A DNA stretch of 64,000 nucleotides. Source: an uncultured Pseudomonadales bacterium (GTDB taxonomy: Bacteria > Patescibacteriota > Microgenomatia > UBA1400 > PJMF01). This document shows positions 16,492 through 32,628 of the stretch, piece by piece; position 1 is the stretch's first letter, and each line of letters begins with the position of its first letter. The translations under genes were made by a program, and so were the position numbers. Location: positions 142,721-206,720 of the forward strand of contig CAZNOF010000001.1 of assembly GCA_964574595.1 (NCBI GenBank), written 5' to 3'. Under the pieces are notes generated by a model, which saw only the letters and a list, made by a program, of their open reading frames with translations, was not told where the DNA came from and did not search any database.

Positions 16492-16971
16492 ATGAATAAA
16501 TTAACACTACCAGTTCTCGCCTTAGCGATCATTGGAGTTGGTGGAAGTGTCTACACGATCGCAAATAATCGTGCAAATACCGTCCACGCTCAAACAGCTG
16601 CAGTATCAACGCAATCAGCGACAGATATACCTGAGGTTAACGACACACCGGATGTTCAGGAGCCAAAACAAGCTTCTATTACTTCTGGTGTGACCGTTCC
16701 TGAGTCGGCTACGGAGATGGACGATACTGCTGAAAACTCGAAACTCACTACATTGGCAAAAATTAGTGAAGCCCAAGCGAAAGCAGCAGCCGAGAAAAGC
16801 GTTGGTGGTACTGCAAGCTCAGTGAAGCTTGAAGAAGAAAACGGCAACGTGGTCTATACCGTCACAATTGGTGACAAAGAGGTAAAGATCGATGCTGGAA
16901 ACGGCTCAGTACTTCGTACTGAAGCTGCCGATAGCACAGAAACTCATGATCAGACTGATAAGGCTGACTAA
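16492..16971 (+). CDS. Secreted PepSY-domain protein
   Basis: Signal peptide and a C-terminal PepSY-like segment (AKAAAEKSVGGTASSVKLEEENGNVVYTVTIGDKEVKIDAGNGSVL). There is a good GGGGTG RBS upstream. Confidence 0.6.
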   Translation: MNKLTLPVLALAIIGVGGSVYTIANNRANTVHAQTAAVSTQSATDIPEVNDTPDVQEPKQASITSGVTVPESATEMDDTAENSKLTTLAKISEAQAKAAAEKSVGGTASSVKLEEENGNVVYTVTIGDKEVKIDAGNGSVLRTEAADSTETHDQTDKAD

Positions 16972-16990
16972 TGAGACCAGACACAAAGAC

Positions 16991-17018
16991 GGGAGATCGT
17001 AAAGGTCTCCTGTTTTTG
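16991..17018 (+). terminator. Rho-independent terminator after the PepSY gene
   Basis: GGGAGAtcgtaaaggTCTCC hairpin followed by TGTTTTTG. Confidence 0.45.
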
Positions 17019-17132
17019 TAGTACTACTTTTACTGGATGAGAACTAAAGCAAATACTAAAGTGTGTATTTCTCTCTTTATAAAGAGAGTGTTGGAGTGCG
17101 CATAGTAAAGCTGAACTTTCAATTTCTTAATT

Positions 17133-17678
17133 CTACGGCATGAACAAGTAGTGATATTCGTCAAAGGCAAAATAACTTGGGTGGTTGAGTAGCTGATCTG
17201 CTATTTCCCATGCAGTCATATCCTCGGAGATTCGATAAGAAGCATATATATCGACAGTATTATTTCCTACCCTCAAAGCATCTGTCCTCCCAGGCAATTT
17301 ATCTACAGAGTGCTCTAAGGCATACTTCAATGCTTTCTCATCTCGCACAAATCCGTAATACTCTAAATTGCTCAGTAGAGCTGAGAGTGTTGTACCTTGC
17401 GTCAGGCGCAAAGTAATCTTGCCATCACTTCCTTTAGAAGAGCGAGCTTCTTTTGCTTCCGCGGGTGTCATATGCAAACGTTCCAAATAGTAATCCTCAA
17501 CTTTCTTAGGTGAATTCCAATTTTTCCCTGGTGCTTGAAAACTTTCTTCACTTGGTTTTGTCAAACTGATCTGCATTGGTGAATTCGGTTGTTTAATCAC
17601 AAGGGCAACAGACGCCAATATGATGGATAGTAGAATCAAAAGCAAAAGTCGGTTTTTTGTGAACAGTTTTTTTATCAT
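17133..17678 (-). CDS. Membrane-anchored protein, weak resemblance to the N-terminal (non-catalytic) YceG/MltG-like region
   Basis: N-terminal TM helix and a short ITLRLTQGTTLSALL..GFV segment. It is too short to carry a catalytic domain. Confidence 0.3.
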   Translation of the reverse strand: MIKKLFTKNRLLLLILLSIILASVALVIKQPNSPMQISLTKPSEESFQAPGKNWNSPKKVEDYYLERLHMTPAEAKEARSSKGSDGKITLRLTQGTTLSALLSNLEYYGFVRDEKALKYALEHSVDKLPGRTDALRVGNNTVDIYASYRISEDMTAWEIADQLLNHPSYFAFDEYHYLFMP

Positions 17679-17733
17679 CGCTATTTTATTATACGTCTCT
17701 TTGGCAACTCATTTCTCTCTCGAGGTTAATCTG

Positions 17734-17761
17734 TTGACATTTGTCACGATCTAGATATACT
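17734..17761 (+). promoter_or_regulatory. Sigma70-like promoter of the T4SS-like operon (TTGACA-16-TATACT)
   Basis: TTGACA at 17734-17739 and TATACT at 17756-17761 with a 16-nt spacer, about 50 nt upstream of the pilin start. Confidence 0.45.
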
Positions 17762-17811
17762 TTGAGACAATAACAACCATTAGCTGCCCTAATGTATAGA
17801 ATGGGCGGCTT

Positions 17812-18138
17812 ATGAAAAAAATAATTGTTTTCCAATTTTTCGTTTTCTCTTTTTTACTCCTCGCCTCTCCTGTCTTTGCTCAAGCTACCGATATTGCGAA
17901 GGTTCAGAACTTTATTACCAGTATCATCCAATCACTAGTACTCCTCGCAGGAGCATTAGCCTCTGCTTTCTTTGTCTGGGGTGGGATCAGCTATATCACC
18001 AGCTCAGGAAATCCAGAGTCACTTGAAAACGCTAAAAAAACTATTAAGTATTCAGCGATAGGTCTCACTATTTGCTTAGCCGCATTTGTTATTACAAATA
18101 TCGTCACTCAGTTGGCACAGAAAGCATTTGGTCAATGA
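17812..18138 (+). CDS. VirB2/TrbC-like T4SS pilin
   Basis: 108 aa: a signal peptide (SPVFA|QA) followed by two hydrophobic helices separated by a short polar loop, which is the VirB2 topology. Confidence 0.55.
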   Translation: MKKIIVFQFFVFSFLLLASPVFAQATDIAKVQNFITSIIQSLVLLAGALASAFFVWGGISYITSSGNPESLENAKKTIKYSAIGLTICLAAFVITNIVTQLAQKAFGQ

Positions 18139-18154
18139 GTAGAGAACATGAAGC

Positions 18155-19453
18155 ATGCGTCACACCACCGTATTCATCATTTTCATTTTGCTTGCTATAT
18201 TCCTACCGTCGCCTGTTTTTGCTGTTTCCAATAACCTAGAAGTTACACAATTCACCTCATCAACACTCAACACTCTCACTATTCTTGCCTCTTTGGTAGC
18301 CACCTTTTTTCTACTCCAGGGAGGATATCTCTATATCACCTCAGCAGGAAAGCCTGATGCGCTGCAAGCAGCAAAGAAAACAATTCGGAATGCATCGATC
18401 GGATTAGTGTTGGTTCTCTCCGCAAACACAATTACTTCTCTACTCACTGGAGCATTTACGACTCCAAGTATCCCGATAGATGGAAATTCCCTCGCTTTAA
18501 CGCCAATCGAACCCGTGGCTCCAAGTAGCGGGTTGGCTCAAGTGTTAACTGATTCCATCGCCTCTCTACTTCAGAATATTATCCAAAGTGCTACCAAACC
18601 CATTACGGATGCGATTCTTAGCTTTCTCACCATTACCCCCACTCTGGCAACAAACTCCGTAATTTTTAACTTCTGGCTCATTATCGTAGGTATAACCGAC
18701 TCACTCTTTGCACTTCTGATTGCAGTCTTAGGCTTTCAATTTATGAGTGCGTCAACATTTGGATTTGAAGAACTTGAGCTCAAACAATTATTGCCTCGCA
18801 TTGGTCTGGCCTTTTTAGGAGCAAACACATCCATTTTTATCATTGACTGGATTGTGAAGTTGCTCAATGTTCTCGTGTCTGCAATTCTTCATGCCACGGG
18901 AGGACTCAATCAAGTATGGCTTGCCAACGCGTTTAACCCCGCATCACTGTCTACAGATCAAATTGCACTCATCACACTGATCTTTATGATTCTCTTTCTT
19001 ATCCTGGCAGTCGTTCTGCTACTTTTCTATATCACACGCTTAATCGTGATTGCGCTGGGAGCGGTACTTTCTCCATTACTGTTTTTGCTTTGGTCAGTAC
19101 CAAAGTTTGCTGATTTTGCAGAAATCTCAGCCAAGTCGTATCTGGTAACCGTTTTCTCTATCTTCATACACGTTGTCATCATTCAATTGGCTGCTTCATT
19201 TTTAACACTTCCGGGACAGGTGGGAACAAATTCACTGATCTCAATTCTCGTTGGTGTAGGACTCCTTATGACACTCCTGAAAACTCAATCATTTATGATT
19301 CAACTCATGTTTTACAACTCCGGTCGTTCGATGATCAAACGCATTGGTGGGCAGTTGATGAATGTGATGAGTAGTAAGCAATCGGAATCGACTGCGACGC
19401 CATATTTTGCCGATAAATCTATAAAAACTGCGAGAAAGGTTGTGAACGCATGA
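18155..19453 (+). CDS. Pilin-like N-terminal module fused to a VirB6/TrbL-like polytopic membrane domain
   Basis: The first ~100 aa are paralogous to the upstream pilin (SPVFA cleavage site, LAS/LVA helix, YITS[SA]G[NK]P[ED][SA]L..AKKTI). The remaining ~330 aa contain at least five TM helices. Confidence 0.55.
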   Translation: MRHTTVFIIFILLAIFLPSPVFAVSNNLEVTQFTSSTLNTLTILASLVATFFLLQGGYLYITSAGKPDALQAAKKTIRNASIGLVLVLSANTITSLLTGAFTTPSIPIDGNSLALTPIEPVAPSSGLAQVLTDSIASLLQNIIQSATKPITDAILSFLTITPTLATNSVIFNFWLIIVGITDSLFALLIAVLGFQFMSASTFGFEELELKQLLPRIGLAFLGANTSIFIIDWIVKLLNVLVSAILHATGGLNQVWLANAFNPASLSTDQIALITLIFMILFLILAVVLLLFYITRLIVIALGAVLSPLLFLLWSVPKFADFAEISAKSYLVTVFSIFIHVVIIQLAASFLTLPGQVGTNSLISILVGVGLLMTLLKTQSFMIQLMFYNSGRSMIKRIGGQLMNVMSSKQSESTATPYFADKSIKTARKVVNA

Positions 19454-19935
19454 GAACCACTATTATTCCTGCTCAAATTACATCAGTTGAAGATACCATT
19501 GCAGGGAATTTAAACCTGCAACAAATTGTGTTGTTTATTCTTTCCCTTTTTATCAATACCTTTTTGTATGCGCTTCTTCCTATGCGCCTTGCGTTTACGT
19601 TCTACAAAATTCCAATCATGATCGCGGTCTTCGTAGTATGCATTGGTCTATCGCTTCGAATTAAGCAACGGATCGTTCTCGATTGGCTGGTTGTCTTTGT
19701 TCGATATGCCATTCGTCCACATCTGTATTTCTTTAATAAGAATTCGGAAGTTTTCCGATCCATCGTCGTTGAAAAAGTAATTCTCAAACAATCATTCAAA
19801 CAAACTCCTATTCTCGATTACAAGCTAGATCGTCCCAATTCATCCGCCTTCGACTATACATCCCTTTTACGTAATCCATCGCTAAACATCCAGTTCAAAC
19901 GCAATCGTGTTCAGGTAATCAAAAACTATGAGTAG
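19450..19935 (+). CDS. VirB3/PrgI-like small membrane protein
   Basis: 161 aa with two TM helices, immediately upstream of VirB4 and overlapping the previous gene by ATGA. Confidence 0.4.
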   Translation: MRTTIIPAQITSVEDTIAGNLNLQQIVLFILSLFINTFLYALLPMRLAFTFYKIPIMIAVFVVCIGLSLRIKQRIVLDWLVVFVRYAIRPHLYFFNKNSEVFRSIVVEKVILKQSFKQTPILDYKLDRPNSSAFDYTSLLRNPSLNIQFKRNRVQVIKNYE

Positions 19936-20542
19936 ACTCAACAAAGCAGCATCGTCTCGGTCACAGATCAACATCAAAGAAGTCAAAGATGGTGTTCTGG
20001 TTTTGCCTGGAAAAAAGTACCGCATGATTGTTGAGACATCAGCAGTGAACTTTGAATTGAAAAGTGAAGAAGAACAAGATCAAATCATCGACATGTTCCA
20101 AAATTTCTTAAATTCTCTTCCTTGCCCTGTACAAATACTTATACGAACCAGAGAAGTGGATATCGATGGCTATCTTGAGGAGTTTATGCAGCACAAATCT
20201 CAAGAGAAAGAAGTAGTCTACAAGGAACAGATTGATGAATACGCTTTGTTTATTAAGAAACTCATCTCAGGAAACAAAATTCTTTCTCGAAAGTTTTTTA
20301 TCGTCATCCCATATACCTCAGAAAATGGAAAACACGACTTCTCTCTCATTAAAGAACAACTTCAAGTAAGTGTAGATATTATTTCAAAAGGGCTTGAGCG
20401 AATGGGGATGAAGACACGGACACTCGGAAATTTGGAAACGCTCGACCTTTTCTATAGTTTTTATAACCCTGCTCATACAAAATCTCAGCCATTAACTAAA
20501 AAGGCTGTCCAAGCATTACTAGCGGAATCCTATGGAATTTAA
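19928..20542 (+). CDS. VirB4 N-terminal domain as a separate ORF
   Basis: 204 aa. Together with the next ORF (597 aa) the length matches a canonical ~800-aa VirB4/TrsE. The junction is ATGGAATTTAA, i.e. translational coupling in a different frame. Confidence 0.45.
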   Translation: MSRLNKAASSRSQINIKEVKDGVLVLPGKKYRMIVETSAVNFELKSEEEQDQIIDMFQNFLNSLPCPVQILIRTREVDIDGYLEEFMQHKSQEKEVVYKEQIDEYALFIKKLISGNKILSRKFFIVIPYTSENGKHDFSLIKEQLQVSVDIISKGLERMGMKTRTLGNLETLDLFYSFYNPAHTKSQPLTKKAVQALLAESYGI

Positions 20543-22325
20543 ACCAGTTACATATCTGACGAAAAGAATAAAAGCATTTCAAAAGCGAAAAAAAACGCAA
20601 GACAAAGCACGTCAATTTGAATTTGGAACACAAGATCAAGTCGATCTGATTTCCTATGCCAGCTTGAAAGAAACGTCAAACTATATTGAACTCGATGGGA
20701 AAGTCATGCGAACACTTTTTATATCAGGCTACCCGTATGTTGCAACGACTGGCTGGCTCTCAATGCTTACCAACTTCAATCATAACGTCGATATCTCGTA
20801 TCACATTGAACTGGTTGATCCCTTGATTGCACTCCCTAAACTCACTCGAAAAATCACTGAACTTGAATCAACCCGGCGATCCATGCTCACCGAAGGGAAA
20901 ATTATTAGCTCAGAGATCCTTGATCCACTTGAGTCCGCCATGAAACTCAAAGATAGAATTCTACGAGGACAAGAAAAACTTTTCCAGGTCTCCATTTATG
21001 TCACATTGATTGCTGACACGCTTTTGGATCTCAATAAGACGACTACTCTTTTGGAAACCACTCTTGCCACAAAACTGTTCTATACAAAAATTGCCGGATT
21101 CCAGCAGCTTGAAGCATTGCAGTCAATTCTGCCTAGAGGAGAAAATCTATTGGCACAGAAAAGAAACTTAGATAGTTCTTCTGCTGCCCTTACTTTCCCA
21201 TTCACATCCTCGGAACTCGTGCAGGAATCAGGAATTTTGTATGGAATCAACAAATCCAATAATTCCCTTGTCATCATCGATCGATTTTCACTTCACAATG
21301 CGAACAGTATTATCTTTGCCCAATCTGGAAGTGGAAAAAGTTATTCTGCAAAAGTAGAAATTTTACGTCAACTGATGCAGAAGACAAAAGTGATTGTAAT
21401 CGATCCGGAGCGTGAATATAAACAACTGTGCGAATCTCTCAACGGTACATATATCAAATTATCCGTTAATTCCAAAGAAAAGATCAATCCGTTTGATTTC
21501 TCTCTCAATGCCTCTGGTTCGGAAAATAGCCTCGCCGAACATATTCAGGACCTCACCGAGGTAATTTCACTTATGGTTGAGGGTCTTACGGCTCAAGAAA
21601 AAGCAATTCTCGACCGTGCCATCATCCAGACATATAAGGAAGCTGGGTTTTCGCTTCGAGCAGTTCAAAAATCTCGAGGTAAACATGTCTATCCACTCTT
21701 GAAACACTTATATAAAAACCTAAAAGCTGAGGGAGAAAAAGGTTTGACAGCCAGACTAGAAAAATTTGTAACAGGTTCGCTTGCGACCGTGTTTGATAGT
21801 CAGACAAACATTAAACTCGATAATCGCCTGGTTATTTTTGACATAAAAGATCTTCCTGAATCAATTCGAAAGATTATGCTCGTGATCGTGGCAAACTTTG
21901 TCTACAACCAAGTGAAAATAGAGCCTCAAAAACGTTTACTCATAATTGATGAAGGCTGGTTACTCCTGGAACACCAAGAAAGTGCCAGATTTGTGGCTGG
22001 GTTAGCGCGTCGAGCCAGAAAATATTATCTCGGTGTAAGTATCATTACCCAACAAGCCAATGACTTTTTAAACAATGAATATGGTCGAGCGATTGCCTCA
22101 CAGGCCTCTTTGAGGATTCTGATGCGTCAGGACACCACCACCATCGCAGGAGTAGCTCGAGAATTCAAACTCAGTGAATACGAAGAAAAATTCCTACTCA
22201 CCTGTGATCGAGGTGAAGCCATTATCATTGCAGATCAGAATCATGTGGCGATAAAAGTAGTGGCTTCCGAGAAAGAACATCCTTTAATAACCACAGATCC
22301 CAAAGAACTTTTCCAAACCCCATGA
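20532..22325 (+). CDS. VirB4/TraC/TrsE-family T4SS ATPase (C-terminal ATPase portion)
   Basis: Walker A AQSGSGKSY, Walker B LLIIDEGW, plus AGLARRARKY and ITQQ motifs. Confidence 0.8.
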   Translation: MEFKPVTYLTKRIKAFQKRKKTQDKARQFEFGTQDQVDLISYASLKETSNYIELDGKVMRTLFISGYPYVATTGWLSMLTNFNHNVDISYHIELVDPLIALPKLTRKITELESTRRSMLTEGKIISSEILDPLESAMKLKDRILRGQEKLFQVSIYVTLIADTLLDLNKTTTLLETTLATKLFYTKIAGFQQLEALQSILPRGENLLAQKRNLDSSSAALTFPFTSSELVQESGILYGINKSNNSLVIIDRFSLHNANSIIFAQSGSGKSYSAKVEILRQLMQKTKVIVIDPEREYKQLCESLNGTYIKLSVNSKEKINPFDFSLNASGSENSLAEHIQDLTEVISLMVEGLTAQEKAILDRAIIQTYKEAGFSLRAVQKSRGKHVYPLLKHLYKNLKAEGEKGLTARLEKFVTGSLATVFDSQTNIKLDNRLVIFDIKDLPESIRKIMLVIVANFVYNQVKIEPQKRLLIIDEGWLLLEHQESARFVAGLARRARKYYLGVSIITQQANDFLNNEYGRAIASQASLRILMRQDTTTIAGVAREFKLSEYEEKFLLTCDRGEAIIIADQNHVAIKVVASEKEHPLITTDPKELFQTP

Positions 22326-22921
22326 ATCCATTCTTACTCTGGAACATTTTTTCCTTTCGTCATGAAATTAAATATGTTGCCTTAGCTTTCATTCTCATCC
22401 TCTGTTTGCCGTTCATTGCTGTGATCGCCCTCACCCATACAGGAACAGATGTTGTTTCTGATCAATTGGTCAATAGTACACAAAATGAGTCAGTCGAAAT
22501 TAAAAACCCTCTGAATGGAACAATTCTCAAGAAAATAGATGGACCATTCATCTGGCCAATACATGGAAGAATTACTCTTGAATTTGGAGAGTCTGATTTG
22601 CCCTACCAGCCATTTCATACGGGGATAGATATTGCCGGAAAACCTGGAGATCCTGTGATCTCATTTCTTAAAGGTACAGTGATCTATGCTGGAGAACTGT
22701 CTTGGGGATATGGAAAACACATCATCGTTGATAACGGAAACAATGTGACGTCACTCTACGGCCACTTAAGTAAGATTTCAGTCAAAAAAGGGGATGTAGT
22801 CCCTCAAGGACAAATAATTGGATTGAGAGGAAGTACAGGATGGTCAACTGGAGCACACCTTCATTTTGAAACGAGAGTATTTGGAATCCCAGTCAATCCA
22901 AGGGTATTTTTAGGAAAATAG
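22322..22921 (+). CDS. Membrane-anchored M23/LytM peptidase (T4SS-associated wall hydrolase)
   Basis: N-terminal TM helix, HTGIDIAG and HLHFE motifs. Overlaps the VirB4 stop by ATGA. Confidence 0.8.
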   Translation: MNPFLLWNIFSFRHEIKYVALAFILILCLPFIAVIALTHTGTDVVSDQLVNSTQNESVEIKNPLNGTILKKIDGPFIWPIHGRITLEFGESDLPYQPFHTGIDIAGKPGDPVISFLKGTVIYAGELSWGYGKHIIVDNGNNVTSLYGHLSKISVKKGDVVPQGQIIGLRGSTGWSTGAHLHFETRVFGIPVNPRVFLGK

Positions 22922-22927
22922 ATAATC

Positions 22928-24331
22928 CTAATATTTCATATCAACGTAGTAGCCAGTCCTTCCATAGCACGGGTACCCACTTTTAGTTTTATGCGGATTG
23001 AGGCTCCCACTATGTGTAGTTTTCGTAAACCGCTTGCCGCAGGCAGTACATTGATAAATGTATCTTGGTCCAACTGAAACGCTTCTTCTCGTTCTTCCAA
23101 ATCTTGTTCTAGGCGCACTTAATGGTTTGTTTGGATCAAACAGGTGAGGATCTTCTGGCGTTTCTCCTGCCTTAGATAGTTCTATAATAAAACCCTCCCT
23201 GGGTTTGAATTTTTCTTCAGTGTTCTCTATAGATTGAAAGTTCTCCGATACAAAACACCGAACCCCAGGAGCACTTTGTCCACCAGAACAGTTGTATACG
23301 TAAAAATATTCTCGTTCTTGTCCATCTCTTTTTTGGAGGTATTTCAATGAATAAGGCTCGATCATTCGATTTTCTCCTTTATAGCAGACCTTCAAAAGAG
23401 TTTGAGTTCGAGCGGCGTGCATAATTGGATTTCTTAACTCAGGTCCAAAGTATGCAAACTGCGAATACCCATTATCTGGATATACACTGAAGAGTGTCTC
23501 CAAATCTCCTAAGAATGTGGCAATTGCCTCGTCTACACCAAACACAAATTGTTGTGCACACACCAGAGTTTTATCCCAGTATTCTCTAAAGTAATCAAAT
23601 GAAGTTTTGAGTAGGATATTTTTCAATACGTGAGGGTTTTTATCAAATATCGTTTTACGTATTAGCGTTTGGACGACTTCTTCTTTGTTGAGTTGTCCTC
23701 CCAACATTTTTATAGAGTAAGCGTAGTCAAACAGGTCGGGAGCGTGTTGTCGTTGAAGCAAACACTTAAGTTTAGTTGCAATAATCTCTTCTAGCTTCAT
23801 ACATCGTATGTCTGTAGTGAGCTCGCCTGCATCAGAATATGGGTGAATCAATTTTACAGTTTGGATTGGCAAAAGTACTTTATCAAAACGGGTAATATCC
23901 ATTGAAATTCGTATCCTGAAATGCTCAGCATTTCCATAAAAGTCACGAAAGTAGACTCGTGCTTCGTACACTTTCAGTCCGGGGATCGGAGCTTCACTCG
24001 CAGAAAATTTCTCTTCAACTTTATTATCCTCCTTAATAAAAGAGACATGTGCTTTCTCTTGAATAAAATCACAAACATTATTGATCTCTTTTAGCAATAT
24101 TTCCTGTGATATGTCTCCTGGAATACCAAAGTCTAAATCTGCTGAAAAGCGAGTGTTTTCGAAGTAGCCTTTACGGAGAGCGTTGCCTCCTTTTAGAAAA
24201 AGCTCATCTTTGAGGCCACTCACCGTGAAAAAGCCGTGAATTAGCCAGCCAAAAACATAATCCCTCTCCACATTTGACCGATGGATTTCAAATTCGACAG
24301 CTTTGGCATCAATTTCTTCTTTTTTGATCAT
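22928..24331 (-). CDS. AbiEii/DUF1814-like Pol-beta nucleotidyltransferase fused to a WYL-like domain and a C-terminal zinc-finger-like tail
   Basis: NTase motif FLKGGNALRKGYFENTRFSADLDF (hG[GS]...DhD). WYL-like segment RMIEPYSLKYLQKRDGQEREYFYVYN..GVRCFVSENFQSIE. C-terminal YQCTACGKRFTKTTHSGSLNPH (C-x2-C...H...H). Start set at M34 (24331) to avoid overlapping the divergent XRE gene. Confidence 0.55.
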   Translation of the reverse strand: MIKKEEIDAKAVEFEIHRSNVERDYVFGWLIHGFFTVSGLKDELFLKGGNALRKGYFENTRFSADLDFGIPGDISQEILLKEINNVCDFIQEKAHVSFIKEDNKVEEKFSASEAPIPGLKVYEARVYFRDFYGNAEHFRIRISMDITRFDKVLLPIQTVKLIHPYSDAGELTTDIRCMKLEEIIATKLKCLLQRQHAPDLFDYAYSIKMLGGQLNKEEVVQTLIRKTIFDKNPHVLKNILLKTSFDYFREYWDKTLVCAQQFVFGVDEAIATFLGDLETLFSVYPDNGYSQFAYFGPELRNPIMHAARTQTLLKVCYKGENRMIEPYSLKYLQKRDGQEREYFYVYNCSGGQSAPGVRCFVSENFQSIENTEEKFKPREGFIIELSKAGETPEDPHLFDPNKPLSAPRTRFGRTRRSVSVGPRYIYQCTACGKRFTKTTHSGSLNPHKTKSGYPCYGRTGYYVDMKY

Positions 24332-24422
24332 ATCTCGAGTGCAATATCTTTTGGATTGTAGTCCTCTTCCGTAAAAATCTCCAGTGCGCGGAATCTTTCT
24401 TGAATATAGTATAATTTCGAGT

Positions 24423-24632
24423 ATGGCCACTAAGAAAACAGATCAGAACGCTTTTGGAGTGCTTCTGAAAGAAGCGAGAGTAAAACTCGAGCTCACCCAG
24501 ACTCAAGTCGCCGAAAAAGCAGACATGACTAGTACTTACTATGCAATGATCGAACGAGGAGAAGTAAATCCTTCTCTTGAAAAGCTCAAGAGCCTGGCTA
24601 AAGTGCTTAAGATCAAATTGACAATCTCTTAA
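24423..24632 (+). CDS. XRE-family (Cro/CI-type) HTH transcriptional regulator
   Basis: LLKEARVKLELTQTQVAEKADMTSTYYAMIERGEVNPSLEKLKSLAKVL. It is divergent from the NTase-WYL gene. Start taken at the ATG at 24423. Confidence 0.75.
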   Translation: MATKKTDQNAFGVLLKEARVKLELTQTQVAEKADMTSTYYAMIERGEVNPSLEKLKSLAKVLKIKLTIS

Positions 24633-24931
24633 TCTAATTTTCTCTCGGCCAATACTCTTAAAGCAAATTCTCTCATAACGTCTGCCACTTTGATCGCCTG
24701 CTCTATGTTCGCATGATCTGGATCAGTTGTTTCTAGGCACTTCAGTGCGGATTCAATCAATATTTCACGATTGCTTTCACGCATGGCGAACAGTAGTGTT
24801 TCCTCTGAAATAGAATTGTACTTCTCTCCAAAGCGAGCAGATTTCGACAGTTCTAGGATTTCTGTCCAAGGTAACAAGCTCAGGTTAGAGATGCTGTCAT
24901 TTTTAGATTTCATCCCTCGTATTATAGCCAC
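24629..24931 (-). CDS. Small protein of unknown function downstream of the PLD nuclease (possible cognate inhibitor/immunity)
   Basis: 100 aa, 9 nt downstream of the PLD gene on the same strand. No recognisable motifs. Confidence 0.35.
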   Translation of the reverse strand: MAIIRGMKSKNDSISNLSLLPWTEILELSKSARFGEKYNSISEETLLFAMRESNREILIESALKCLETTDPDHANIEQAIKVADVMREFALRVLAERKLD

Positions 24932-24940
24932 TTTCTCAAG

Positions 24941-25381
24941 TTAGAGGAATTTGGAGTATTGGAGAAATTCAAACATCTCATTTGCCTCTTCTTTGTCTTC
25001 AATTCGCATCATGATTTCTCGGCTTTTGCTCTGAGATAGGATATTTAAACTTCCCTCCCAGAGGATCTCCCTGTCGAGAAGAGCTAACTTCCGATGGTGA
25101 TTTCCTGTACACAGAAGTACTTGCACTCCAAGCCTCTCAAACCGTTGGATTTCAGCTTCCGATTGTGGCTCCATTGTTTCTGTATGTTCTCGAGGATCTC
25201 GAGTAAATATATAGACTTTTACGTCTTTCTCAATAAGTAGCTTAAAATAAGGGAAAAGTGTCCTCATTCGTTCGCTTGTAATGAATGGACTTTCAACAAC
25301 GACTTCGCTAGTACAGCGAAGTAAATCTTTCTTGAATTGTTGGTAAAACGTCGTTTCGTCAAACAAAGAGGAGTTATTCAT
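24941..25381 (-). CDS. Single-HKD phospholipase-D-family nuclease (Nuc-like)
   Basis: Perfect HxKx4Dx6GSxN signature: HHRKLALLDREILWEGSLNI. At 146 aa with no signal peptide it matches dimeric single-HKD nucleases. Confidence 0.75.
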   Translation of the reverse strand: MNNSSLFDETTFYQQFKKDLLRCTSEVVVESPFITSERMRTLFPYFKLLIEKDVKVYIFTRDPREHTETMEPQSEAEIQRFERLGVQVLLCTGNHHRKLALLDREILWEGSLNILSQSKSREIMMRIEDKEEANEMFEFLQYSKFL

Positions 25382-28075: not shown

Positions 28076-30280
28076 TTATATCTCAATGTCATAATCCCAG
28101 TCCCCGCCTTGGTATTTAATCAAATCCTGTCTGAAAAGTGATGGGAACATCGACCAAATAACTGTCAAGTGTTTACGGACATGCTCATCTGGGTCACTGA
28201 TAGCTTGTCTGAGTTCATTTTGGAATTTCTCGGGATCCGAAGCCCAGGTATCAATGATGGTCGCTCGGACCATGACACTTTCCTCTTTTGCGTAGAGATC
28301 TTGCAGTTCCTGTTTGAAATGGGTTGGCAATGATTTCCAGGCTCTGACAACGTTATTGCGAACTAAATCATCTTTATCTTGGACAGCTTCATTCAAAAAG
28401 TCTTTGAAGAAGACAGGATCTCTGACCACCATCTCACTAATCTGATCACGATCTGTTTCATTATTGGTCTCTTTTGCTTTGCGGTACATGTAGATAAGTT
28501 CATCTTTATAGGTATGGATATCTTTTCTAATAATTTCGATAATCGAGTCCTTTTGAAAATTCCCAGAAATTTGCGTCATTAAGCTATTCAGGACATTCTT
28601 TTGGCTTAAATTAGAATAGCTCTGTTGAATCGCCTCAGGGTTGATTGCTCGTAACATCAAGGGATGCTGAAGTGCCTTCAAGGCTGCTAGACGACCCTCT
28701 GGAGTGTGAAGATATTGAACAATGTGGCCAAAGGTGAGCTGATCCAAAGGAATTTGCTGATTTGCTCCCGTGTATACGAGTGCCCCGGGATTTGCAGGGT
28801 TATTGGCGGCTTCGATGTACATGACAATGGCATTGGTAACTGCCTCTGCTGACAGACGATTCTGTGTATCTCCAACCTCAGATGGCACAATTAAGCCGCG
28901 GACCTCCCAGGTCTTAAACCAAATGGATTTCTTAATAGTCTCTTCCTCATTTCCCAGAACCTCACCGATTAATGGTCGAAAGGGATGCTTGGAGAGATCG
29001 AGATGTATGTGCATGCTGGAGAGATGTTCGGCATTATCTCTAAACCAATGAGCTAACTGATTCAGTGATTTAATATACTCAGCGTTAAAATCTAATGCTT
29101 TGGATGATCGTCTCATCTCGGGAATGTCTTCTTTTTGGGTAAGTGGGTTGATATCAAACCCGTCGTCCCATACTTCTGGGATTTCTGTGATTGGAACGTC
29201 TTTTGAGTACTCAAATTCCAGGCCAATCTTCCCAGTAATAGGGGTCAGGGGATCAGTCGGCATGACGACTTGTTTGCTCATTCTTCTCAATTCTGGGTAA
29301 CTGTCAAAAAGTGTTTGGGCATCTTGTTCCATTGCCTTACGAAGTTCGCTATATCTGGCTTGTTGGTCAATCAGCCAAGAAGACTCTGCGGCTTGCGGAT
29401 GAATCATGATTTGACTGGTGAGTTGGAAGGCAAGTGGATGCGAGAGATCTTTCTGTTCATCCATTTTCCAGAGAATATCTTCGTGCTTAGAAGTGGGAAT
29501 CGTGATTTGCTCTAAACAATCATAAATCATGTAACGCAGCTTCTTGTTCAAGTGAGCGTTGTCGATAGCCTTCAGAAGACTGTCAACCAGATCTGGTAAC
29601 TCTGGCAAAAATTCGGTCGGTTTTTTCGTTTCTAATCGATATTTGTGTAAGGCATTTTTGAGGAGCGTGGTTAATGTTTCAGCGCCTTTTGTATCACCTA
29701 GCCCGTCTCTGATGTCTGGATCGGCGGCTGCCTCGGCAATTCTGATGGCGACTGTTTCAAAGGGACCTGGCACGGTGTAAGGATATCCGTCTTTTCCCTG
29801 AAATCTGACATGCTCTTCCCGAAGCAACGCCCGGCGGGATACCTGTTTTTCGTGTTCCGGCTTAATTGTGGCCAGTACGCGGCTAACTTCCTCAGGAATC
29901 TCTTTCACACTATTCGCGCCATAAAATCGCATGACTTCTTGTGCGATAAACGTATTGGGATTGTTGCTGAGAATCAGAATCTCCTGAAGCGGCCGTTTCG
30001 GCTGTTGGGTCTCAAGTTGTTGATTCGCTAATTTTTTCACCATCTCTTCATCTGGAGTCAGAACTCGATTTTCCATGTTGGCTGATTCCGGAACGAACAA
30101 ACCTCGTTGTGCACGGGCAATTTGATCACGACGGGAACTTGGAATAAGTAGACCAGTCTCGGTTTGAGTCAGATCCTCTTGATGAATCTGACCGCGTAGC
30201 TCACTGGGGATTTCTAATTGTGGCTTTTCAATACCTAGGTGTGCTGGTGTGAGGGGTTGTCTATCAATTGACGTATGCAA
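28076..30280 (-). CDS. Large paralog B: conserved GLEFEY...SMHIHLD core plus C-terminal HEAT/PBS-lyase-like repeats
   Basis: 734 aa. Shares N-terminal, central (YTVPGP, IYDCLEQI, GKIGLEFE, PEMRRS, WFRDNAEHLSSMHIHLD) and C-terminal repeat (D..VR...) blocks with the adjacent 777-aa gene. Confidence 0.6.
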   Translation of the reverse strand: MHTSIDRQPLTPAHLGIEKPQLEIPSELRGQIHQEDLTQTETGLLIPSSRRDQIARAQRGLFVPESANMENRVLTPDEEMVKKLANQQLETQQPKRPLQEILILSNNPNTFIAQEVMRFYGANSVKEIPEEVSRVLATIKPEHEKQVSRRALLREEHVRFQGKDGYPYTVPGPFETVAIRIAEAAADPDIRDGLGDTKGAETLTTLLKNALHKYRLETKKPTEFLPELPDLVDSLLKAIDNAHLNKKLRYMIYDCLEQITIPTSKHEDILWKMDEQKDLSHPLAFQLTSQIMIHPQAAESSWLIDQQARYSELRKAMEQDAQTLFDSYPELRRMSKQVVMPTDPLTPITGKIGLEFEYSKDVPITEIPEVWDDGFDINPLTQKEDIPEMRRSSKALDFNAEYIKSLNQLAHWFRDNAEHLSSMHIHLDLSKHPFRPLIGEVLGNEEETIKKSIWFKTWEVRGLIVPSEVGDTQNRLSAEAVTNAIVMYIEAANNPANPGALVYTGANQQIPLDQLTFGHIVQYLHTPEGRLAALKALQHPLMLRAINPEAIQQSYSNLSQKNVLNSLMTQISGNFQKDSIIEIIRKDIHTYKDELIYMYRKAKETNNETDRDQISEMVVRDPVFFKDFLNEAVQDKDDLVRNNVVRAWKSLPTHFKQELQDLYAKEESVMVRATIIDTWASDPEKFQNELRQAISDPDEHVRKHLTVIWSMFPSLFRQDLIKYQGGDWDYDIEI

Positions 30281-30294
30281 AAAGCATACCAGCC

Positions 30295-32628
30295 TTAGTT
30301 ACTTGCTGCCACTGCTCTTTCTGCACGTTCTCTAATGTCTTGATCAGAATCCTGAGAAGCTAATTTTAGCTCATCTTTATAACTTCTTGGTCTCATGGCC
30401 CAAAAATCGACAATGACATTCCGAATTGAATCACCTTGATTTTTGTAGGCATTTAAAATATCGTCCCTGAAAAGGTTTGGTTTCTCCAGCCAAGCTTTCA
30501 CCACCAGCTTTCTAATGTAGGGATCTTTGTCTTGCATGATCTCTTTGAGTTTGTTTTGATTTTTACCAAGATCTTTTACCCAGCCATTTACCACTTCCGC
30601 TCTTACCCGCCAACTGGGATCTGATGCATAGATGTTTTCAAGTTTTTCTCGGTATTTACTCGGATCTGTAGCCCAAAATTTTGCCACAGCGGCTCGGACA
30701 TAGTGATCTTGAAAAGTAGCAAGCTGATCGATAGTCTCGGTAAATTCTGTTGGCTGACTGGTGATGGCTCGCACTAGGTACTCTTTTTCCGACTGCTCAT
30801 TTTCACCTTGCAGATACTCGATGATATTGGGCAGGAAAATGCCTGGTGCTTCATACATCGCTCGTACAAGTGCGAGTTTCTGATAGTTTCCCTCAGCAGA
30901 TTTCTCAAGCGTTTTTAGGGCAATTGGTTTGCTGGCATCATCGAATCCCTGGATCAAAGAGTAGGGATCAATACTTTTAAACATCAACGGATGCTCTAAA
31001 ACCTTTAATAAGGCTAGTCGACCTTCAAGACCATCAAGGTGAGCAGAAACATAAGCAAACGTGAGCTGATCCCAAGTATAATCCCGATCTGATTCAAGGT
31101 GAATTTCTGGTCTGAAATGCTCATCTTCGCGGGCAGCTGCAATGTAGAGTTCAATAGCGCTGACGACGGCCGCTCCGTCAAGACGATTCCGTTGCCGCGT
31201 GTCAAACGGAACCAATAAGCCTCTTATTTCCATCGTGTTGTAATTAATGCCATTTCGGTAGGTCCGATTTGAGTTTCCCAAAATGCCACCTAAATCAGGT
31301 CGAACAGGATGTGTCGTTTTATCAAGATGAATGTGCATGCTTGATAAATGCTGAGCATTATCTCTGAACCAGTCCGACAAATGGCTCACAGAACGAATGT
31401 ACTCAGCATTGTAATGAAGTGCATTAATACTTCTTCTCATTTCAGGAGCGTTTGTACCTTCAGGATTTGATTGAGGGTTGTCCACACCTTCTTCCCAGAC
31501 GTCGCTGATTGGTTGCTCTAGAGGATCTTCTGGTTTGGAGAACTCAAATTCAAGTCCAATCTTCCCTTCTGTGGGATGAAAAACATCACTCGAGACAACA
31601 ATTCGTTTGGCTAGACGCTTGAGCTCAGAATAATGATGCACTAAAGTTGTCGGGTCGTTATTCAAGAGTCCCAGTAACTCAATTCGTCGCTCTTCTTGAG
31701 CTTTCAACCAGGTGGATTCGGCTGCCTGAGGATGGGTCATTATTTCCGTGGTTAACTGAAATGAAAGCGGGTGACTTAAATCTCGATTCGAATCCATTCG
31801 CCATAAGACATCTTCAAGAGTTGATGTGGGAATGTCAATTTGCTCAAGACAGTCATAAATCATAAATCGTAATTTTCGATTCAAGCTTGCCATATCCAGC
31901 GCGGTAATTAACTGATTCACCAGGTCAGGCATTTCGGGTAGGAACTCAACTTTTTCAGGGGTCTTTAATCGATACTTCTTCAATAGCTCCTTGAGAATCA
32001 GCGTTAGCTGTTCAGCTCCTTTGCTATCACCCAGTGCCTCTCTGATAGCTGGGTCTGCAACTGCCTCAGTTATTTTCATTCCCACGTACTCAAGTGGCCC
32101 GGGGACGGTATAGGTATATCCATCTCTACCTTGATACTTCGTGCGTTCTTCTCTTTGAGTAGCTGAAAATGAGGGTTCACCCTTTTCTTCCGGATCGAGG
32201 TCAATTAAGACTTCGCCCACAACTGATGGAAGTTCTTTTGCCGTGTGAACGCCATAATCTTTCAATACTTCTTGAATAACAAATGCTCTTGGGTTGCTCC
32301 CGAGGACAAGGATTTCTCGGATTGGTCGCTGAGGTTTTTCTTCTTCAGTAGACTGCGTGCCAAACTGTTGAATTGCCTCATCATCTGGAGTTAGGATCCT
32401 GTTTCGGTCCATCCGAGCTGATTCTGGAACAAGTACCTGTCGAGAAGCTGACACGAGCTGATCTCGCCGGGATCCTGGCACGAGCAGCCCAGTATTTGTT
32501 TCGGTGAGGTCGTTAGGATTGACTTGGCCGCGCAGCTCATTTGGAATTTCCAATTGAGGTCTTTCTAAGCCGAGATTCGCTGGAAGGATAGGTTCTCTGT
32601 TTGTTGGCGTATGCAAAAAGCATATCAT
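30295..32628 (-). CDS. Large paralog A: same architecture, longer HEAT-repeat tail
   Basis: 777 aa. The C-terminus carries at least five D-x-x-[VI]R-helix repeats (DHYVRAAV, DPSWRVRAEV, DPYIRKLV, GDSIRNVI, DQDIRERA). Confidence 0.6.
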   Translation of the reverse strand: MICFLHTPTNREPILPANLGLERPQLEIPNELRGQVNPNDLTETNTGLLVPGSRRDQLVSASRQVLVPESARMDRNRILTPDDEAIQQFGTQSTEEEKPQRPIREILVLGSNPRAFVIQEVLKDYGVHTAKELPSVVGEVLIDLDPEEKGEPSFSATQREERTKYQGRDGYTYTVPGPLEYVGMKITEAVADPAIREALGDSKGAEQLTLILKELLKKYRLKTPEKVEFLPEMPDLVNQLITALDMASLNRKLRFMIYDCLEQIDIPTSTLEDVLWRMDSNRDLSHPLSFQLTTEIMTHPQAAESTWLKAQEERRIELLGLLNNDPTTLVHHYSELKRLAKRIVVSSDVFHPTEGKIGLEFEFSKPEDPLEQPISDVWEEGVDNPQSNPEGTNAPEMRRSINALHYNAEYIRSVSHLSDWFRDNAQHLSSMHIHLDKTTHPVRPDLGGILGNSNRTYRNGINYNTMEIRGLLVPFDTRQRNRLDGAAVVSAIELYIAAAREDEHFRPEIHLESDRDYTWDQLTFAYVSAHLDGLEGRLALLKVLEHPLMFKSIDPYSLIQGFDDASKPIALKTLEKSAEGNYQKLALVRAMYEAPGIFLPNIIEYLQGENEQSEKEYLVRAITSQPTEFTETIDQLATFQDHYVRAAVAKFWATDPSKYREKLENIYASDPSWRVRAEVVNGWVKDLGKNQNKLKEIMQDKDPYIRKLVVKAWLEKPNLFRDDILNAYKNQGDSIRNVIVDFWAMRPRSYKDELKLASQDSDQDIRERAERAVAASN

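Follow-up and report, generated by a model that had tools for sequence, protein, structure and literature searches.

A six-gene cassette on contig CAZNOF010000001.1 (assembly GCA_964574595.1) is best explained as the form that the chromosomal 'Patescibacteria-clade' type IV secretion system (T4SS) takes in Microgenomatia; that system descends from the monoderm MPF-FATA (CD1110/CTn2-like) conjugation machinery. We analyzed a 64-kb stretch of this contig (64,000 nucleotides, positions 142,721 to 206,720 of the forward strand; hereafter the window), in which six plus-strand open reading frames (ORFs) fill positions 17812–22921. Their products are, in order, g1, a VirB2-like pilin; g2, a pilin::VirB6 fusion; g3, a PrgI/VirB3-like protein; g4, a TrsD-like protein; g5, a VirB4 ATPase; and g6, an M23 metallopeptidase. 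The system has already been published, and the locus is an ordinary member of it. The cassette probably serves the epibiotic lifestyle, through attachment to a host or exchange of macromolecules with it, rather than the transfer of a mobile element. A preliminary description of this DNA had proposed a Gram-positive-style T4SS that may serve something other than plasmid transfer, which agrees with the published view and is not new (PMC12102498, PMC10633639, PMC12857230).

Relatives of the VirB4 ATPase g5 were searched in a collection holding one genome per species. A total of 225 relatives were confirmed, and the best 80 of them formed, together with the window, a comparison set of 81 loci. These 80 were 68–89% identical to g5 and came nearly all from metagenome-assembled genomes (MAGs) belonging to the candidate phyla radiation (CPR)/Microgenomates; those with sensible labels were Woese-, Levy-, Davies-, Shapiro- and Roizmanbacteria. 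By comparison, the nearest plasmid VirB4s, CD1110-type proteins of Bacillota or Actinomycetota, were at most 35% identical to g5. These identities are consistent with membership in the Patescibacteria VirB4 clade. The organism is a member of the Microgenomates/Microgenomatia (CPR, Patescibacteria). Many CPR-type cassette contigs (e.g. L002, L004, L006, L010) were titled 'uncultured Gammaproteobacteria', 'Pseudomonadales', 'Micrarchaeota' or 'Methylococcaceae', and these odd taxon labels probably reflect mislabelling or mis-binning of the MAG records. Pfam matches in the window included a dcw/mur cluster, FtsZ, FtsA, isoleucyl-tRNA synthetase (IleRS), ParB, L21 and signal peptidase; the window is chromosomal because the dcw cluster, FtsZ, IleRS, ParB and L21 are present.

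All six genes of the anatomy given in the preliminary description (pilin, pilin::VirB6, VirB3-like, two-piece VirB4, M23) were present, and profile searches agreed with it. The operon-like coupling of the genes is real: g1 and g2 are separated by a gap of 16 nt, g2/g3 and g5/g6 overlap in ATGA, and the overlaps of g3/g4 and g4/g5 measure 8 nt and 11 nt. The earlier statement that ATGA overlaps couple the six genes was thus right about the tight coupling and about two of the five junctions, and wrong about the other three. The strong TTGACA-16-TATACT promoter named there was confirmed. This sigma-70-type site (17734–17761, plus strand) matched 11 of 12 positions, lay 50 nt 5' of the first pilin gene in a 133-bp intergenic region and had the top score across positions 16900–24600, a region in which the total count of promoter-like sites was not above that of shuffled sequence. 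Among 61 loci, 36 had a match of at least 10 of 12 positions no more than 150 nt 5' of the orthologous first pilin gene, compared with none in control windows inside virB4 (n = 61). The promoter is supported by this comparative signal.

The first gene (g1, 17812–18138) encodes a VirB2-like pilin of 108 aa, which matched T4SS_pilin (1.1e-14), TrbC (5e-8) and, with 42.1 bits against a curated cut-off of 40, NF045849, the NCBIfam model for the Mbov_0395 pilin-like conjugal transfer protein. Its hydrophobic segments correspond to a signal peptide and a two-helix hairpin. The second gene (g2, 18155–19453; 432 aa) also begins as a pilin, with a signal peptide, a pilin hairpin at aa 28–100 (T4SS_pilin, 2e-10) and a disordered linker at aa 101–126, and continues as a polytopic VirB6-like domain at aa 127–413. 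TrbL-type profiles matched this C-terminal domain weakly, and PDB sequences yielded nothing useful when searched with the sequences and profiles of g2, g3 and g4. An AlphaFold2 model of g2 built from an alignment of diverse homologues was confident (predicted local distance difference test score, pLDDT, 80.3; predicted template modelling score, pTM, 0.73), and its best Foldseek matches were all TrwI chains (probability 1.0, with weak E-values of 0.01–0.07). A profile of the g2 family matched, through the C-terminal domain only, a protein of an Embleya conjugative plasmid (2e-23) that is encoded directly 5' of PrgI. Fold, profile and gene position thus support the identification of g2 as a pilin::VirB6 fusion, with the polytopic helical VirB6 fold encoded beside VirB3 and VirB4.

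The comparison proteins, TrwI/VirB6 of plasmid R388 and Legionella DotA (PDB 7O3V, 9NGY), were 11–16% identical to g2 in sequence. They differ from it in that they have no N-terminal VirB2-like domain, and the g2 locus has no VirB5 partner. The N-terminus of VirB6 is periplasmic, and a pilin fused there would be topologically coherent. In metagenomes the fused architecture was widespread and formed ~60 clusters at 50% identity, with full-length coverage down to 26% identity. On sequenced plasmids the fusion was not found by tblastn of g2 against PLSDB, which returned one weak Streptomyces match. Metagenomic proteins of 280–930 aa with 3–8 tandem T4SS pilin domains (P0203, P0208, P0224, P0226 and others) were also observed, and these are pilin polyproteins.

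The third gene (g3, 19450–19935) encodes a PrgI/VirB3-like membrane protein of 161 aa with two hydrophobic helices. The window protein alone matched PrgI weakly (8e-4, model positions 2–86 of 91), and 37 of 38 g3 orthologues matched the same family, the best at 3.7e-8. The next two genes together make up one VirB4. The soluble product of g4 (19928–20542, 204 aa) is a free-standing VirB4 N-terminal piece of TrsD/TraC-like type, which matched conju_CD1110 (positions 11–172, 7e-12), VirB4_plasma (positions 105–284, 1.7e-12) and TrsD (1.9e-5), and its orthologues carry Pfam PF26593 (TraC-like). TrsD is a free-standing VirB4-N-like protein in pGO1-type systems. The product of g5 (20532–22325, 597 aa) is the VirB4 ATPase, which matched positions 167–734 of conju_CD1110 with a score of 352 bits (cut-off 325), as an MPF-FATA VirB4 does. 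The two proteins are thus collinear on a single NCBIfam model of the CD1110 family (11–172 and 167–734). Residues 227–584 of g5 matched the VirB4 C-terminal domain of PDB 4AG5 (3.6e-47), and the Walker A (AQSGSGKS, aa 263–270) and Walker B (hhhDE, aa 470–474) residues were invariant in 81 of 81 loci. A HerA/FtsK-type identity for g5, which the preliminary description had named as the case that would overturn it, was rejected: HerA matched at 7.8e-5 compared with 6.8e-105 for VirB4 CD1110, and matches among PDB sequences were to VirB4 only. The division of VirB4 into two genes recurs in 78 of 79 loci and is therefore neither a sequencing artefact nor a pseudogene.

The last gene (g6, 22322–22921) encodes a membrane-anchored M23 metallopeptidase of 199 aa (Peptidase_M23, 8e-32) with one N-terminal transmembrane segment. 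The residues of its HxxxD and HxH motifs were invariant or nearly so over ~80 orthologues, with H99, D103, H179 and H181 kept in 79–80 of 80. It is probably the peptidoglycan-opening enzyme and a functional analogue of VirB1.

Across the comparison set, gene order and orientation were identical in all 59 loci long enough to hold the six genes, and these six were the only universally retained genes among the 81 loci. The overlapping junctions were kept in 70 of 72 loci for g2/g3 and in 78 of 79 for g4/g5. Median pairwise identity was highest for VirB4 (74%), followed by g1 (63%), g4 (60%), g6 (57%), g2 (55%) and g3 (41%). Two observations would fit the view that the cassette is what remains of an integrated conjugative element that is decaying and no longer works, namely the lack of DNA-processing genes in the window and the VirB4 gene in two pieces. 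We find this scarcely credible, given that the reading frames of the split VirB4 still overlap in nearly every locus, key residues, those of the Walker and M23 motifs among them, do not vary, the six genes are intact over ~80 species and the promoter is conserved. The orthologous system is reported to be essential in Saccharibacteria (PMC10633639).

Some Microgenomates genomes hold two complete cassettes (L047/L051 on contig CAJQIG010000001.1, L002/L032, L030/L077 and L048/L080), with VirB4 pairs that are 68–92% identical. In L087 and L088 (16354–17770) the core of a diversity-generating retroelement (RVT_1 reverse transcriptase and bAvd) lies directly 5' of the first pilin gene.

A Patescibacteria-specific VirB4 clade nested in MPF-FATA was reported from 2,407 of 3,035 genomes (Quinonero-Coronel et al. 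2025, PMC12102498), and its companions are TrsD, PrgI/VirB3, VirB2-like pilins and peptidases, all chromosomal (PMC12102498). Like this T4SS, exemplified by Southlakia epibionticum (SEML1_0006-0019), the window has in a monoderm setting an MPF-FATA-related VirB4, a separate TrsD-like gene beside virB4 and a peptidase gene downstream. The overlap of g4 with g5 is an arrangement kept across 79 loci. A PrgI/VirB3 homologue and VirB2-like pilin genes also stand beside virB4, and the location is chromosomal with no relaxase or type IV coupling protein (T4CP) nearby, the absence of an associated relaxase holding throughout the 64-kb window. Unlike S. epibionticum, which has a six-gene pilin array, the window has two pilin domains. 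The same survey found VirB6 homologues scarce and VirB2 'arrays' abundant in Microgenomatia (PMC12102498); in the window the second pilin and the VirB6 domain form a single protein, a fusion that the survey does not mention. The window further differs in a variable island after the M23 gene, which the accounts of the published Patescibacteria T4SS cited here do not describe.

In S. epibionticum the T4SS and pilin genes are reported to be essential for epibiotic growth and the T4CP is not (Wang et al. 2023, PMC10633639, as summarised in PMC12102498 and PMC12857230), and its T4SS was noted to have no recognisable coupling or relaxase proteins (PMC10633639). Reviews describe what the system does as 'completely unknown' and propose that it delivers effectors or acquires nucleotides (PMC11665869, PMC12857230). 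Tubular structures, possibly T4SS pili, have been seen at a parasite–host interface (bioRxiv 10.64898/2026.06.21.733656).

Plasmids offered more distant comparisons. On the Paenibacillus urinalis plasmid NZ_CP118103 (L081), a Bacillota MPF-FATA system of the CD1110/CTn2 type, PrgI lies 5' of VirB4 and a cell-wall hydrolase lies 3' of it, as in the window. This VirB4 (~32% identical to g5) is, unlike that of the window, a single 789-aa protein, the hydrolase is NlpC/P60 and not M23, pilin genes are lacking, and its immediate neighbours are a VirD4 (CD1115 family) and an FtsK-type translocase. The Pontibacillus sp. ALD_SL1 megaplasmid NZ_CP062975 (L082, 4456–14009), which carried the best plasmid match to g5 (35% identity), has the same gene order as the window: two Mbov_0395-type pilin-like proteins, a large membrane protein, a small protein in the VirB3 position, a TrsD-like protein whose gene overlaps that of a CD1110 VirB4, and a hydrolase that contains M23. 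The annotation within 9 kb of it lists neither a T4CP nor a relaxase. It differs from the window in its free-living Bacillota host, its hydrolase of 1050 aa and its protein in the VirB6 position (779 aa), which is unfused and was not matched by the g2 profile. The Pontibacillus locus adjoins flagellar genes. The pairing of VirB2-like pilins with a neighbouring split CD1110 VirB4 thus occurs outside CPR too, which appears to contradict the statement that VirB2-like pilins of monoderm T4SSs are known only from Patescibacteria (PMC12857230).

On the Embleya plasmid NZ_CP108778 (L083, 7335–8384), a 349-aa 'PrgI family protein' carries a TrsD/VirB4-N-like region at aa 136–249 and is a VirB3::VirB4-N fusion. 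The VirB4 N-domain is thus partitioned in three ways, being fused to VirB4 in Paenibacillus, free-standing in CPR and Pontibacillus, and fused to PrgI in Embleya.

To a conjugative MPF-FATA system or an integrative and conjugative element (ICE) belong a T4CP, a relaxase and an integrase, and the window lacked all three. None was found by a Pfam scan of the window ORFs of at least 100 aa, which were taken as genes after a few nested or overlapping ORFs had been left out (~10 were without a match), and there was no recombinase in the window. Searches by tblastn with T4CP, MOB_C and FtsK-type translocase queries from related or reference loci also found nothing in its 64 kb. The absence of a VirD4 coupling ATPase, relaxase or integrase reported in the preliminary description was therefore borne out. 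This absence, which for T4CP and MOB_C relaxase extends over 17 kb upstream and 41 kb downstream of the cassette, is weak evidence against DNA transfer.

Several observations weigh against the epibiotic, host-directed reading. A Replic_Relax relaxase (Pfam, 58 bits, cut-off 25), a family that belongs to the MOB_C superfamily (PMC5357655), was encoded no more than 10 kb from the cassette in 11 of the 81 loci. In nine of these 11 it adjoined a T4CP of ~865 aa (TrwB_AAD_bind, TraG-D_C), and in four of the nine a large serine recombinase was adjacent too. In a diverged six-gene cassette on a 216-kb metagenomic contig (L089, 6658–15173; VirB4 48% identical), a Fic/RhuM protein, a T4CP-like ATPase and Replic_Relax directly follow the M23 gene. 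The same cassette may thus be found in ICE-like surroundings. T4CP homologues were found in 2,918 CPR genomes, near-universally and rarely near virB4 (PMC12102498), and, with relaxases standing beside some relatives, DNA-processing genes may lie elsewhere in the genome despite their absence from the window. No VirB8-like component was identified at the locus, the fused pilin domain as a pilus nucleus replacing VirB5 is speculation, and the host-interaction function of the Microgenomates system is one that we wholly infer.

The adjacent relaxases and T4CPs, the L089 arrangement and the many T4CP homologues in CPR genomes would fit a mating-pore module that still moves DNA with a T4CP and a MOB_C relaxase encoded elsewhere or in trans, as would the presence of two cassettes in some genomes. 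The relaxase loci were spread over six of the 18 VirB4 clusters; none fell in the window's own cluster, in whose nine other loci no T4CP or relaxase gene lay within 10 kb of the cassette. The window's neighbours are core housekeeping genes, and retention of the cassette in nearly every species with the VirB4 identity given above would be unusual for a selfish element. Published transfer between classes is rare, and relaxases were detected in 103 of 3,035 genomes (PMC12102498). We therefore regard continued conjugation as quite unlikely. The cassette occurs both alone and in ICE-like settings, and the detail of adjacent relaxases is not in the cited accounts of this T4SS, though the survey noted a relaxase-linked minority. 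A large serine recombinase lay within the 10-kb flanks in seven of the 80 related loci. Four loci (L008, 592–6122; L009, 928–6509; L026, 71–5643; L048, 14700–20712) combine a serine recombinase, the ~865-aa T4CP, Replic_Relax and small DUF2958-type genes, and are ICE-like.

Outside the cassette, two flanking gene families recurred, one encoding a phospholipase D (PLD)-superfamily protein (54 loci) and the other an XRE-family helix-turn-helix (HTH) regulator (26 loci); every other family was confined to 11 or fewer of the 81 loci. The proposal that the secreted proteins and HEAT-repeat paralogs next to the cassette could be cargo is not supported, since across the 80 related loci these genes are not kept beside it beyond the closest relatives. 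Several candidate system parts or cargo were rejected on the same ground, being conserved only near the closest relatives: the HEAT-like paralogues (28076–32628), a PepSY protein, a two-component system and an upstream 181-aa gene. The paralogues are two adjacent proteins of 734 and 777 aa with weak HEAT_2 matches only.

In the window the M23 gene is followed by a gene for an AbiEii-like nucleotidyltransferase (22928–24430, minus strand; PADLOC AbiEii, 2e-47) with a C-terminal zinc ribbon, which is a spacer gene and not a machine part. The spacer between the M23 and HTH genes is hypervariable and holds unrelated genes in other loci (e.g. an S8 peptidase and an AAA protein in L086), a pattern suggestive of a hotspot for insertions or defence genes. 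Next come the XRE-family HTH regulator (24384–24632, plus strand; 82 aa, HTH profile matches), a small soluble protein of 100 aa (24629–24931, minus strand) and a single-HKD PLD-superfamily protein of 146 aa (24941–25381, minus strand; PLDc_2, 1.4e-10). The XRE-HTH gene, on the strand of the T4SS, faces the PLD pair in 33 of the 54 PLD loci, and in the minimal loci (L087, L088) it directly follows the M23 gene on the same strand. The small protein, encoded directly after the PLD gene, had no match in Pfam, NCBIfam or PADLOC; a small ORF stood in this position in 45 of the 54 PLD loci, and 40 of those 45 belong to one family.

The linkage of the PLD gene to the cassette is solid. Where at least 8 kb of downstream sequence was available, the gene was present in 44 of 54 loci, always convergent to the cassette and 0.27–7.9 kb from the M23 stop, and look-ups from two PLD homologues landed beside T4SS cassettes in the same arrangement. 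In genomes with two cassettes each has its own PLD, and these PLDs, at 47–56% identity, are much more divergent than the VirB4 pairs. The motif HxK(x4)D(x6)GSxN was invariant in all 54 PLD proteins. The best profiles were the Mokosh MkoC PLD domain (1e-10) and, weakly, Zucchini/mitoPLD, and the window protein has neither a signal peptide nor a transmembrane segment. An adjacent T4CP/MOB_C was seen in five of the 10 PLD-lacking loci (L009, L026, L029, L042, L055) compared with five of the 44 PLD-positive ones, so an anticorrelation is possible, on small numbers. The trio of PLD, small protein and XRE regulator is not described in the accounts of the Patescibacteria T4SS in PMC12102498 or PMC10633639. 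The PLD protein may be an effector, a processor of nucleic acid, a defence protein or merely the anchor of a defence island.

Among these possibilities, nucleic-acid processing would fit a machine that imports host nucleic acid for a cell unable to make nucleotides, like Helicobacter ComB or the archaeal Ced system, with PLD acting on the cargo. The ComB DNA-uptake system of Helicobacter pylori is a T4SS that has neither coupling protein nor relaxase and keeps VirB2-, B3-, B4- and B6-like parts around a diderm core (B7–B10). The VirB2, B3, B4 and B6 set of the window, with no T4CP or relaxase nearby, resembles ComB minus its outer-membrane parts, a likeness of the parts list only. A weak similarity to CedD (7.5e-7) and the linked PLD gene, catalytically intact and beside both copies in two-cassette genomes, also favour import. 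Nucleotide acquisition by the T4SS has been raised as a hypothesis (PMC11665869), and acquisition of host RNA has been reported for one CPR parasite (bioRxiv 10.64898/2026.06.21.733656). Against this, the PLD protein carries no export signal, could equally be defence- or toxin-like given its Mokosh-type best profile and its place at the border of a defence-gene island, and is missing from 10 of the 54 testable loci and from L089. Import of host nucleic acid is, in our judgement, a live sub-hypothesis within the host-interaction reading, though an unlikely one.

Under the host-interaction reading, the parts could work together as follows. The VirB2-like pilin is Sec-exported, and the M23 enzyme, as in VirB-type systems, would open the peptidoglycan locally. 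By the same analogy, VirB3, VirB4 and VirB6 would form the translocon of the cytoplasmic membrane, in which VirB4 may pull pilin from the membrane and, using VirB6 as the platform, polymerise it. Pilin domains tethered to the VirB6 oligomer could stand in for the missing VirB5 as a base or primer layer, and the resulting pilus or channel would touch the host bacterium. A still bolder proposal makes the cassette, the XRE regulator and the PLD/small-protein pair one module, in which PLD is either a translocated effector that the small protein inhibits or a processor of host nucleic acid taken up, and in which five pilin domains on a VirB6 pentamer substitute for VirB5 and nucleate the pilus. We consider this combination a long shot; if true, it would give the Patescibacteria T4SS a concrete substrate or cargo.

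Few machines are known to be indispensable to the epibiotic life of a very large, mostly uncultivated bacterial radiation, and the Patescibacteria T4SS is one of them. The window adds no new system to it and provides a clean, minimal Microgenomates example, in which the split of VirB4 is exact and conserved and in which the PLD, small-protein and XRE genes stay linked while other flanking genes vary. VirB6, reported as scarce in Microgenomatia, may be found fused to a pilin, since here the second 'pilin' is the VirB6. In a minority of species, a MOB_C relaxase adjoins the orthologous cassette, in many cases together with a T4CP and in some with a serine recombinase, and these bear on whether the system has really left conjugation.

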